Shown here: in pieces, positions 1 to 33,376 of the stretch
Layout: every line of letters begins with the position of its first letter
How positions within the stretch are numbered: the first letter of the stretch is position 1
Source of the DNA: Octopus vulgaris
Lineage: Eukaryota
DNA length: 64,000 nucleotides
Assembly (NCBI GenBank): GCA_951406725.2
Contig: OX597827.1
Span: 29,202,001-29,266,000 of the forward strand
Direction: 5' to 3'
Made by a program: the position numbers and the translations under genes
Notes under the pieces: model-generated
Told to the model about the DNA's origin: nothing
Database searches by the model: none
What the model saw: the letters and a program-made list of their open reading frames with translations, nothing else

Positions 1-356
1 ATGATTATATAATATTTTTCACTATTATAACAAATTTAATTTAATTCTCTGAAGAGGCCGTGGGGCATCCTTGTTAATGCCTCATTTATACCTGCCTTTA
101 TGGCTTATAGGTTAAATGAGGTATGACTGTCCTCACTGCCGAAACAGCTGTCAGTTTTGATTTATTTGCATATTATATTTGAAATTTTTTACTTATATCT
201 CTTTATCTTTTTACTTTTACTATTACTGTATATCTCATTTCATTTTATATATTGCCTTTACTCATATGTAATGGTGTATTAAAGTATGGATTGAGTATCA
301 TCGGATAGTTGATGTTTTACTGATTTAAGTATCTTTCTCCATTCTCTAATTTTGTA

Positions 357-1368: not shown

Positions 1369-1685
1369 TTATATATATATAGATATATATAGACGGGAAA
1401 GGATGACTTCCCTTTGCAAATACTGACAGGACACAGAAAGTGTGTCTATGGCCAGCTGGAGGAGTGTGTCCTCCTGGGGCTAAAAACTACAGTAGCATCC
1501 ACCCTTAGGGGTAGCCATATTGAGATGGCAAATATACGTCACGATGTGTTACCGCTACTGTATATAACTCACTTTGATATTTATCATTGTTTGATTTCAC
1601 TTTTTCAATATCAGCGACAGTGGACGCTGGAAAAAGTATAAGTATTTGTGAAGGAAATCTAATTCTCGCCGACAACTATGATTGT

Positions 1686-1730
1686 CACACGCTGACGAGA
1701 GGTCAATACCTCGAAACTCGAGTCCGTGTG
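1686..1730 (+). ncRNA. Minimal type I hammerhead ribozyme
   Basis: CACACG-CTGACGA-GAGGT caat ACCTC-GAAAC-TCGA-GTC^-CGTGTG. Stems I and II are perfect; stem III is the palindrome ACTCGAGT. Predicted cleavage after 1724. Confidence 0.92.
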
Positions 1731-2037
1731 TATCATAAGTTGAAGACGGGAAGGATGACTTCCCTTTGCAAATACTGACAGGACACAGAAAGTGTGTCTA
1801 TGGCCAGCTGGAGGAGTGTGTCCTCCTGGGGCTAAAAACTACAGTAGCATCCACCCTTAGGGGTAGCCATATTGAGATGGCAAATATACGTCACGATGTG
1901 TTACCGCTACTGTATATAACTCACTTTGATATTTATCATTGTTTGATTTCACTTTTTCAATATCAGCGACAGTGGACGCTGGAAAAAGTATAAGTATTTG
2001 TGAAGGAAATCTAATTCTCGCCGACAACTATGATTGT

Positions 2038-2082
2038 TACACGCTGACGAGAGGTCAATACCTCGAAACTCGAGTCCGTGTG
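2038..2082 (+). ncRNA. Minimal type I hammerhead ribozyme (second copy)
   Basis: Same as 1686-1730 except one C>T in stem I, which gives a G-U wobble and keeps the pairing. Confidence 0.92.
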
Positions 2083-2245
2083 TATCATAAGTTGAAGACG
2101 GGAAGGATGACTTCCCTTTGCAAATACTGACAGGACACAGAAAGTGTGTCTATGGTCAGCTGGAGGAGTGTGTCCTCCTGAGGCTAAAAACTACAGTAGC
2201 ATCCACCCTTAGGGGTAGCCATATTGAGATGGCAAATATACGTCA

Positions 2246-2315
<70 letters not shown>

Positions 2316-3756: not shown

Positions 3757-4695
3757 ATCTCGTCATCCCATAAGTTCTGTCCGATTTTACCTTTTTTAAA
3801 ATTGAATGAAATTTAATAGTATTTTAGAATGTCAAATGGAACTGAAAATTATTTTTATGCATTTGTGTACATTTAAACTAATTAAATATTATTTTACAGA
3901 ATAATAGAATTAAAATTTCTTTGATTAAAACCCTTTCTAACATGGAAGTATCCAAAGAGCATTTGAGGCACATAATGCTTTATGAGTACACAAAAGGAAA
4001 CTCTGTAGACGAAGCGACTCGAAACATACACTCAGTTTATGGGAAAGTATGCTTGAATGAAAGAACTTGCAGAAGATAGTTTGCAAAATTCAGAGGTGGA
4101 GATTTCAGTCTTGAAGATGAACATCTAACAGGACGTCCAGTTGAGTTCATGATAAGGTCCTTGAGGCATTACTTGAAGAAAATCCTGCATTATCAGTTGA
4201 AAAATTGGCAATAAAGCTTAGTTCAAACCATACAACTGTTCATCGTCATCTTCAAGAACTTGGAAAGTTTCCTAAACTTCGAAAATGGGTGCCTTATGAA
4301 CTGACCGAAAGCAACCGCAGATCCCGAGTTGACATCTGATCTTCTCTCCATTCTTGCGAAGTCATTTCACCCTTTTTGGATAGACTTGGGAGTGGTGAAG
4401 AAAAGTGGATATTCTATCGAAATGTTAAACGTCGTAAACAGTAGCTTGTTAAAAGGGGAAAAGCTCAACCACAACCGAGAAGGGAACTTCATGGAAAAAT
4501 AGATTCTTTTCTCTATTTAGTGGGATTGCAAAGGAGTAATTCACTTTGAATTGTTACCACCTAATGTAACAATCAATGCTCAAGTCTACTGTCAGCAATT
4601 AGAGCGTTTGAACCAAGCTTTGAAGGAAAAAAGACTCGCTTTAGTGAATCGAAAAGGTGTGATGTTTCATCAGGACAATGCGCGACCCCACACTG
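3757..4695 (+). mobile_element. Truncated, decayed mariner (Tc1/mariner) DNA transposon
   Basis: Transposase remnants from ATG 3942 (MEVSKEHLRHIML...; KWVPYELT; EEKWIFYRNVKR; VYCQQLERL...HQDNARPHTA) with stops and frameshifts. The 3' end is replaced by SINE sequence. The left boundary is approximate. Confidence 0.85.
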
Positions 4696-26116: not shown

Positions 26117-26640
26117 CGGTAGCAAAAAATTCTAGAAAAAATTTCTGCTACCAGCGGTCCAGCGAGAAAGAAAAGATAGTCAAAGACTATATAATATACA
26201 TTCAAAAATATAAGGAATGGCCATAATAGGACATTCAACTCACTAGAAAGAGCAGCCAAACTCGAACCGCTAATAGAATTTTTTGCTACCCTTATATTTA
26301 TTAATTAATGATTTTTTTGGCTAATTTTGAAATTAAATCAGCAGTTTATATTTACTGCTGAGAAGACCGTGCGATTGCGGTAGATTTTGAAAATTTATAG
26401 CATATAGACTGTGGACTTCCTTACCATCGCCTCGTGGATATATACTCGTCCTTGGCTACTCTGCTGACGAGGCACGCCAGTTGTAAGTTTGCCGAAACTA
26501 TGCATAGTCCAGAGATGAAAAGGGTAAACGTTTTTCTTTTTCTTTCATTTTCAGAATTATAGCTATTAGCGGTTTGAGTTTGGCTGCTCTTTCTAGTGAG
26601 TCGAATGTCCTATTATGGCCAATTCCTTATATTCTTGAAT
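26115..26640 (+). mobile_element. Non-coding hammerhead-bearing element with ~77-bp inverted repeats
   Basis: 26201-26276 is the reverse complement of 26563-26640. HHR at 26459-26514. Flanked by (AT)n. Confidence 0.8.
26459..26514 (+). ncRNA. Type I hammerhead ribozyme
   Basis: CTCTG-CTGACGA-GGCA...TGCC-GAAAC-TATGCATA-GTC^-CAGAG. Stem III is the palindrome ACTATGCATAGT. Confidence 0.93.
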
Positions 26641-26755
26641 ATATATATATATATATACAATTAAGGGCTCCTAAATTAAGATGCCGAGTGCTGGGAACAC
26701 AAAAAGGGGATGAATTTATCGAGAGTGAAAATCAAAAACGTTTACCGATAACTTT

Positions 26756-26839
26756 AACAACTCGAACCGCACGGTTTCTACTTCTTTCTAGCAAAACACA
26801 GAATATGTTTGCTAAGGCTAGCTTCGTCAGCGAGTCGCC
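26756..26839 (-). ncRNA. Type I hammerhead (456-bp unit; also at 27212-27295 minus)
   Basis: Reverse complement of the motif at 28388-28471. Confidence 0.78.
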
Positions 26840-27931
26840 TAGATTGAATCGAGGTCTGCAGCGATGTGGGACCATGTGTTGATCTCGACTACTAGCAGAT
26901 CTTAACTTTTCAAATCTCTGCGCAGACGCAAAACTTACACGTCAGTATAGGGCATGCCGGGAAGAATTTTACGAATAAATCCATCATGTAATATGCGAAT
27001 ATAAACAAGAAGGGTAGTAATATTATTTACCACCAGGTGCCCAGCACAAAAGACGAATTAGTCATAAGACAAAAATATTATTCATATAGAAAAATATTAT
27101 TCATGTAGTTATACAATTAAGGGCTCCTAAATTAAGATGCCGAGTGCTGGGAACACAAAAAGGGGATGAATTTATCGAGAGTGAAAATCAAAAACGTTTA
27201 CCGATAACTTTAACAACTCGAACCACACGGTTTCTGCTTCTTTCTAGCAAAACACAGAATATGTTTGCTAAGGCTAGCTTCGTCAGCGAGTCGCCTAGAT
27301 TGAATCGAGGTCTGCAGCGATGTGGGACCATGTGTTGATCTCGACTACTAGCAGATCTTAACTTTTCAAATCTCTGCGCAGACGCAAAACTTACACGGCA
27401 GTATAGGGCATGCCGGGAAGAATTTTACGAATAAATCCATCATGTAATATGCGAATATAAACAAGAAGGGTAGTAATATTATTTACCACCAGGTGCCCAG
27501 CACAAAAGACGAATTAGTCATAAGACAAAAATATTATTCATATAGAAAAATATTATTCATGTAGTTATACAATTAAGGGCTCCTAAATTAAGATGCCGAG
27601 TGCTGGGAACACAAAAAGGGGATGAATTTATCGAGAGTGAAAATCAAAAACGTTTACCGATAACTTTAACAACTCGAAAGGCACGGTTTCTGTTTCTTTC
27701 TAGCAAAACACAGAATATGTTTTGTGCTGGGCACCTGGTGGTAAATAATATTACTACCCTTCTTGTTTATATTCGCATATTACATGATGGATTTATTCGT
27801 AAAATTCTTCCCGGCATGCCCTATACTGCCGTGTAAGTTTTGCGTCTGCGCAGAGATTTGAAAAGTTAAGATCTGCTAGTAGTCGAGATCAACACATGGT
27901 CCCACGTCGCTGCAGACCTCGATTCAATCTA

Positions 27932-28015
27932 GGCGACTCGCTGACGAAGCTAGCCTTAGCAAACATATTCTGTGTTTTGCTAGAAAGAAGCAGAAACCGT
28001 GCAGTTCGAGTTGTT
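27932..28015 (+). ncRNA. Type I hammerhead (456-bp unit)
   Basis: GGCGACTCG-CTGACGA-A GCT...AGC A-GAAAC-CGTGCA-GTT^-CGAGTTGTT; 9-bp stem I. Confidence 0.75.
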
Positions 28016-28387
28016 ATAGTTATCGGTAAACGTTTTTGATTTTCACTCTCGATAAATTCATCCCCTTTTTGTGTTCCCAGCACTCGGCATCTTAATTTAG
28101 GAGCCCTTAATTGTATAACTACATGAATAATATTTTTCTATATGAATAATATTTTTGTCTTATGACTAATTCGTCTTTTGTGCTGGGCACCTGGTGGTAA
28201 ATAATATTACTACCCTTCTTGTTTATATTCGCATATTACATGATGGATTTATTCGTAAAATTCTTCCCGGCATGCCCTATACTGACGTGTAAGTTTTGCG
28301 TCTGCGCAGAGATTTGAAAAGTTAAGATCTGCTAGTAGTCGAGATCAACACATGGTCCCACATCGCTGCAGACCTCGATTCAATCTA

Positions 28388-28471
28388 GGCGACTCGCTGA
28401 CGAAGCTAGCCTTAGCAAACATATTCTGTGTTTTGCTAGAAAGAAGCAGAAACCGTGCGGTTCGAGTTGTT
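28388..28471 (+). ncRNA. Type I hammerhead (456-bp unit)
   Basis: GGCGACTCG-CTGACGA-...-GAAAC-CGTGCG-GTT^-CGAGTTGTT. Stem III is near-palindromic (AACCG TG CGGTT). Confidence 0.8.
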
Positions 28472-28676
28472 AAAGTTATCGGTAAACGTTTTTGATTTTC
28501 ACTCTCGATAAATTCATCCCCTTTTTGTGTTCCCAGCACTCGGCATCTCAATTTAGGAGCCCTTAATTGTATAACTACATGAATAATATTTTTCTATATG
28601 AATAATATTTTTGTCTTATGACTAATTCGTCTTTTGTGCTGGGCACCTGGTGGTAAATAATATTACTACCCTTCTT

Positions 28677-28729
<53 letters not shown>

Positions 28730-32687: not shown

Positions 32688-33376
32688 CACATACATTAGA
32701 ATGAAAAAACTACAGGAGACTAGAATTATATGATTAAAAATATATTCAAATTGTCATGTTTCGAAAATGTTATAAAATTGTATACACAGCAGCATTTTTC
32801 TGGAGAAATAACGGTTTCGTATTTTCTTTTCAAATTTCTCAATTTTCTTTATCTTCGCTATGGTGTGATGTAAAAGAGTTCCAACAGTGGGAGGTTATCA
32901 GGGATGTTTTCGGCATAAGGAAGATAATCAAAATGTTGGGAAAGATAAGGTTTGATATGATTTGGTTACCATAGAATAAAATGCGAGAATTGGTTAAGTT
33001 TTGGCTTATATTTTTCAATGAGGTAAGTTTCCTTATTTAAAATGTTAGAAAGGGTTAGGTTTTGACTTATATCTTTCAATGAAGTAGGTTTCCTTATTTA
33101 ATCTAACATGTGTTGATGTTCCAATGGCACATTGATAAAATGGAAACATTACAAATTGTGGTAGCAGTTGCTTTACACACCTCTCAATGTGTTCACGAAA
33201 GGGTACACATCTGTACTCTGAGAATGCATTTGTTAGATCAATGAAGGCCATCTACGTCTGAGCGATAACCCTGTGGACTCTAATGTAGTTTTGGTGGCAG
33301 CCTGAGCATCTTATAACTTAAAGCAGGTTTTCTGAGGCACAAAATTTGATTTTGAATTTTTGTCCCTCTTTGTATA

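Follow-up and report, generated by a model that had tools for sequence, protein, structure and literature searches.

The tandem array near the left end of the window (the whole 64,000-nt stretch of Octopus vulgaris DNA analyzed here) is best read, with a probability of roughly 0.6, as an insertion of a non-LTR retrozyme mobilised in trans by a Penelope-like protein with reverse transcriptase (RT) and GIY-YIG domains, which would re-read a single 352-nt RNA, probably a circle. On its sequence features the family belongs to the animal non-LTR retrozymes, a known class, and its copies appear to be marked by a Penelope footprint that the initial annotation of this DNA had overlooked. The array was recovered by TRF with a period of 352 bp, 2.4 copies (2.44 units) and 99% matches, in agreement with the near-identical 352-bp units originally described. 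Units differed by three substitutions (1686/2038, C/T; 1804/2156; 1829/2181), and a single surplus A was found near 1398, at the 5' end of the array. TA tracts, absent from the initial annotation, were present on either side. The features are as follows, with phase 1 of the unit set at window position 1743:

1370-1390: left TA tract (target site)
1391-2249, plus strand: single-arm retrozyme insertion of 2.44 tandem units, running from a truncated 5' end (unit phase ~2) to the shorter of both fixed 3' sites (phase 155)
1546-1591 and 1898-1943, plus strand: copies of the 'tail' segment between both fixed 3' ends (phase 155 and phase 198/201)
1677-1737, plus strand: hammerhead 1, predicted canonical type I, predicted cut after 1724
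1725-2076, plus strand: predicted 352-nt monomer between both cuts, GC 0.426
2029-2089, plus strand: hammerhead 2, in which one C-G pair of stem I has become U-G; cleavage predicted after 2076
2250-2312: right TA tract (target site)

The array is non-coding. A coding role was ruled out, as the longest plus-strand frame overlapping it was 84 aa long and had no Pfam match, and a tRNA gene search at 900-2400 found none. The predicted fold of the monomer was more stable than that of shuffled sequences (z = -5.7; antisense, -4.4).

Both hammerhead cores (1692-1724 and 2044-2076) were intact and ended in GUC at 1724 and 2076, as initially proposed. Hammerhead 1 comprises an extended stem I with an internal loop, stem II, a 1-bp stem III and a palindromic tetraloop; the proposed extension of stem I was found where 1677-1682 pairs with 1732-1737, and the difference between the two copies, a C-to-T change that converts a C-G pair of stem I to U-G, preserves pairing as had been stated. 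The Rfam scan at gathering threshold gave no matches across the window, while at a relaxed threshold RF00163 (Hammerhead_1) matched over its entire length twice, at 1686-1730 (32.2 bits, E 5.7e-6) and 2038-2082 (28.3 bits), both under the 34-bit gathering cut-off of this model. The motif had been called a minimal hammerhead, a label that does not hold: as described in the available text of PMC4209133, minimal (PLE-type) hammerheads lack helix III and loop 3 and have a helix II of 7-8 bp and a helix I of 4-5 bp, whereas canonical metazoan type I motifs have helices I, II and III of 6, 4 and 1-2 bp, respectively, the last with a palindromic loop. With a helix I of 6 bp plus its extension, a helix II of 4-5 bp and loop III present, the window motif is of the canonical metazoan type I.

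Sister families were searched with a looser pattern in which stem II and loop III were left free, and which matched 1300 times in the genome versus 0 for the control. Forty sister loci, hand-chosen among the first 100 matches listed, shared 66-89% identity and a colinear unit with the window family, and their loop III was self-complementary with differing letters in 25 of 30 distinct variants. An alignment of 32 motifs was built from that of the window and 31 of the 36 distinct sister motifs (five were left out, truncated ones among them). In this alignment 92.8% of helix cells were paired, slid controls being all far lower, and two-sided changes occurred in 8 of 20 helix pairs, including both loop III pairs; the outermost stem II pair was mismatched in 29 of the 32. 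Since the sister sequences are kin, the shuffles do not represent probabilities, and the search pattern itself partly fixed stem I. This covariation lends support to the predicted hammerhead helices, including the palindromic, dimer-type helix III of the initial annotation, and the retention of a colinear unit with covarying ribozyme helices at 66-89% identity argues for selection on the hammerhead. Energy folding did not favour the dimer in long RNA (for the transcript of 1600-2150, helix III of the dimer had a predicted pairing of 0.003), nor stem I in the circle (0.03), though two isolated 60-mers cofolded as a dimer. The lower variation of the core (3/2224 versus 659/58119) was discarded as a conservation signal, because loci had been picked on the exact core.

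The family is dispersed genome-wide in hundreds of young copies. Its exact 33-nt core occurred 439 times in the genome, versus 0 for the reversed control, and at least 177 BLAST matches of the repeat were found (40 scored of 3018 candidates), bearing out both the retrozyme identity proposed from the tandem hammerhead units and the expected dispersal. Insertion ends were surveyed at 59 loci, covering all 98 listed core places on contigs C1-C3 and yielding 62 insertions, 32 with a single arm and 30 with two arms head to head. The 3' ends of single arms fell at phase 150-156 in 24 cases, at 195-204 in five and elsewhere in three, so defining two fixed sites 43-46 nt apart. Two-arm insertions had one end of each class in 26 cases and the same class twice in none, with one unclassifiable end in the remaining 4/30; all 26 classifiable head-to-head insertions thus use one of each 3' site (25 independent pairs, as L032 and L034 are segmental duplicates). 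If sites were chosen independently, at most half of the pairs would be expected to be mixed (binomial p 1.5e-8 for 26). The 5' ends of 91 arms were scattered, without a pile-up at the predicted cut (two at phase 330-340 versus 2.8 expected), and arms had a median length of 1.17 units and a maximum of 5.1. The permuted copy starts suggested as a check were therefore found in part: 5' ends vary, but 3' ends are fixed at two sites. Flanks were TA-rich on at least one side in 54/62 insertions and on both in 36/62. Target duplications, unreadable inside TA tracts, measured 8-11 bp at two of six inspected sites, the non-TA two-arm sites L065 and L084. On our reading, one of the two end positions (150-157 or 194-204) recurs in at least one arm of 30/40 sister loci.

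These features are those reported for Penelope-like elements. Copies of endonuclease-bearing members are truncated at the 5' end and partly tandem, have one arm inverted, carry a tail at just one of their ends and lie in microsatellites (PMC8557442, PMC3846280), and a lizard element was found in vitro to cut AT-rich DNA and to extend both strands from two internal start sites that delimit the tail (PMC11167929). The retrozyme family bears the same scar, with fixed 3' ends, a one-end tail, an inverted 5'-truncated arm and microsatellite targets. The paired fixed 3' ends, the TA targeting and the 8-11-bp duplications together make Penelope-driven, non-autonomous mobilisation highly probable, and by analogy with the lizard element (PMC11167929) the borders of the tail segment are inferred to be RT start sites, 173 and 216-219 nt past the predicted cut.

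Candidate enzymes are encoded in the same genome. Elements with RT and GIY-YIG domains were numerous, some with intact 781-aa frames (PF01541; 150 of 6136 candidates scored), and a CxxC motif preceding GIY-YIG suggests that they are of the Neptune type; the 781-aa protein had no PDB match. Autonomous Penelope families inserted in TA tracts and shared the insertion scar of the retrozyme, with short and long paired ends in all five inspected loci where both arms were visible (L125, L137, L181, L194, L212). The abundant families A, B and D (L123, L137, L181) had tails of ~30-38 nt, and no hammerhead was seen in their 3' regions.

The shared scar would also be expected if the copies were 3' remnants (pseudo-LTRs) of a truncated autonomous Penelope-like element, a reading that is largely refuted and that we hold to be the least credible of those considered. 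An RT/GIY-YIG frame was joined to the repeat upstream in 0/62 family insertions and 0/40 sister loci, Penelope fragments near family copies being separate insertions; arms wrap the unit up to five times; the 84-aa frame is the longest over the array on the plus strand; and the canonical hammerhead is unlike most metazoan pseudo-LTR motifs (PMC4209133). No pseudo-LTR shared with the retrozyme was found by BLAST against 50 Penelope loci (L090-L139) or when two Penelope proteins were compared with the family and sister loci by tblastn, and local alignment against 17 Penelope 3' regions, representing part of the families in the genome, gave 0/17 above shuffles. Retrozyme matches in L130, L137 and L192 were sister-family copies in tracts of their own. 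In its behaviour the family would resemble the 3' end of a Penelope element, although it is not itself such an end.

One arm end, at L024:950-1400 (C5, ~97.7975 Mb; also in L180), was a colinear interleaved mosaic of the retrozyme and the 3' region of the young Penelope family D (168 nt at 98.8%), in which at least six switches and numerous small deletions were counted. It was rejected as proof of a partner, since two sets of reads were probably merged into one consensus during assembly; a genuine mosaic would reveal the partner element.

Several related features were observed elsewhere in the window. A second hammerhead tandem (26654-28684), with a 456-bp unit apparently unrelated in sequence, lies between TA tracts and consists of two head-to-head arms of 2.3 and 2.1 units, with a long stem II and cores at 27941 and 28397; judged by eye, the end sites of its two arms differ by roughly 105 nt. 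Directly to its left is an isolated hammerhead whose stem III is longer (26459-26514), and hammerhead-like motifs with a long stem II were seen at 49-155 (plus strand), 46593 (plus) and ~59840 (minus), the last two mutually related. At 33054-33371 (minus strand), between TA tracts, lies a 3' fragment of a Penelope-like element with a disrupted GIY-YIG sequence. The region adjoining the array (1069-1368) is presumably a SINE-like repeat, and broken transposase-like frames at 3950-4560 are taken to be mariner-like.

The nature of the template was approached through alleles in 76 insertions (58 from contigs C1-C3 and 18 from the best BLAST hits). Same-site copies differed by 1.1% within insertions versus 1.9% between insertions, and subfamily alleles were uniform inside insertions at three sites (23/23, 30/32 and 22/23). 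Fourteen alleles private to one of the 76 insertions occupied every covered copy, several of them across both arms, while 172 private alleles were absent from some covered copies. Among 166 rare alleles at sites covered at least three times, 155 were found in one unit, eight in all units and three in some units; the one-unit alleles probably represent later mutation and are uninformative on the template. Two all-unit alleles were searched genome-wide, and each was confined to its own insertion, where it was present in 5/5 units and in 6/6 units in both arms, respectively. Moreover, 158 passes across the predicted cut site showed no indel, so that imprecise jumping from end to end of cleaved monomers is excluded. 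The private all-unit alleles and the seamless passes together argue that one RNA unit was read repeatedly by both arms, and re-reading of one unit several times per insertion is likely on this sequence evidence. The rolling copying that the initial annotation deduced from the non-integer copy number is thus retained as far as repeated reading is concerned, on the grounds of the private alleles, but not on those of the copy number, which any truncated insertion would give.

Private alleles could also spread across one array if a short insertion later grew and was homogenised at its own locus through gene conversion or unequal crossing-over, as in the satellite or local-amplification model favoured in bioRxiv 10.64898/2026.07.22.740005, and partial conversion could yield mixed alleles. 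For this family such growth is very improbable: arrays are short, as judged from the arm lengths given above, inverted arms share private alleles, and in many cases of sharing the arms lack the length needed for inter-unit crossing-over.

We favour a circle as the form of the re-read unit, at somewhat better than even odds. Three partial-unit alleles count against it, and a clean circle leaves them unexplained. At phase 314 of L061, GCGG and GC occurred in register in both arms; at phase 330 of L038 (C/GC) and at phase 250 of L084 (G/AG, read from the 3' end), solely the first unit of the short-end arm differed. A multimeric template, a randomly misread lesion or conversion could each underlie these mixtures. 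They would be better suited by Penelope mobilisation from a linear template, either an uncleaved multimer or a redundant RNA with a seamless one-unit back-jump, the hammerhead then being incidental. Such a template also accounts for the fixed ends and seamless junctions, and in the lizard system hammerhead cleavage was dispensable for insertion, unprocessed RNA being the main substrate (PMC11167929). Eight of nine frog dimers showed no cleavage in vitro (bioRxiv 10.64898/2026.07.22.740005), which also counts against the preferred reading. A plain multimer, however, requires a parent array with at least as many units, all of them allele-bearing, and for the two private alleles searched none was present in the assembly, from whose haplotype the parent may be missing. 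An incidental hammerhead is at odds with the covarying ribozyme helices and colinear sister units, which imply selection. Linear-template jumping has a precedent in bacterial DRT2, where programmed jumping reportedly gives tandem cDNA. On balance we regard a linear template as unlikely, while weighing it well above the satellite model.

Contigs from four runs guessed as RNA covered 27-30 of 30 unit bins and joined the unit end to its start, and one 383-nt contig from such runs closed on itself (353+30); these contigs carry alleles of another subfamily than the window copy. Tandem DNA or multimeric RNA would yield the identical pattern, and the contigs are given no weight as evidence.

The preferred reading, re-reading of a probably circular RNA by a Penelope-like enzyme, can be laid out as a sequence of steps. 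Tandem copies would be transcribed, and neighbouring hammerheads would pair via the palindromic helix III and cut after 1724 and 2076, the monomer then being ligated into a circle, as suggested by the covariation and by PMC7229834. A Penelope enzyme would cut a TA-rich target, where TA flanks and 8-11-bp duplications are observed, and each cut strand would prime cDNA at its own internal site (155 or 198/201), yielding the observed paired ends. Each RT would run for up to ~5 rounds before a random stop, as the observed arm lengths and scattered 5' ends indicate. Finally, two cDNAs would join head to head, or one would join the target directly; both outcomes are observed, and the window copy corresponds to the latter, single-arm one. 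A more specific version, in which each insertion is the fossil of one ribozyme-made circle read from both nicked strands by a Penelope dimer with one start site per subunit, is offered tentatively, at slightly less than even odds.

The closest parallels are found among the non-LTR retrozymes of metazoans described by Cervera and de la Pena (2020; PMC7229834), especially the axolotl Rtz_331 (HHR_Amex1) and the 350-390-bp repeats of mussel. Like the class (150-450-bp tandems), the window family has short, multi-copy, non-coding tandem units with GC <50%, a highly paired predicted fold, and type I hammerheads with a 1-bp helix III and palindromic tetraloop (dimer type), as well as the longer target duplications (>4 bp) seen when present. 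Its hammerhead resembles HHR_Amex1, a poor self-cleaver as a single motif but an efficient one when dimeric. The retrozymes of PMC7229834, where a circle was proposed as template, cleave and form circles experimentally, whereas for the window family both steps are proposed from sequence; conversely, fixed 3' ends, paired inverted arms and a template allele test are not described in the available text of that paper. Li, Clavereau and Pollet (2026; bioRxiv 10.64898/2026.07.22.740005) regard non-LTR retrozymes as Penelope derivatives, and their families, like that of the window, co-occur with endonuclease-bearing Penelope-like elements whose machinery they are proposed to use. They base the link on co-occurrence together with homology to pseudo-LTRs (24/57 frog families), while that of the window family lies in the insertion scar, no such homology having been found, and their local-amplification model fits its arrays poorly. 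Endonuclease-bearing Penelope-like elements share with the window family the 5' truncation, partial tandems, inverted 5' arm, one-end tail, microsatellite or AT-rich targets and two internal start sites (PMC11167929); the family differs in having no RT/GIY-YIG frame, a tail of 43-46 nt instead of 30-40, a canonical instead of a minimal hammerhead, and a unit that wraps repeatedly. Craig et al. described putatively non-autonomous multicopy head-to-tail elements in a clade without canonical hammerheads. In the literature covered, neither fixed ends that pair up nor an analysis of template alleles was found to be reported for retrozymes; relevant data may exist in the supplements to PMC7229834 and the 2026 preprint.

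The earlier proposal that circles are copied by Penelope-like enzymes rested on co-occurrence and, recently, on end homology. The window family adds countable genomic evidence on both the circle template and the Penelope enzyme, with two putative start sites placed to the nucleotide. Having a 352-nt template, its start sites and intact candidate enzymes in one genome makes the role of the circle as template testable, together with the origin of the Penelope tail and inverted arm. If the dimer reading is true, the tail would be an obligatory offset between two primings and no optional extension, and the octopus genome would preserve a record of individual RNA molecules, including the mutations and lesions private to each.
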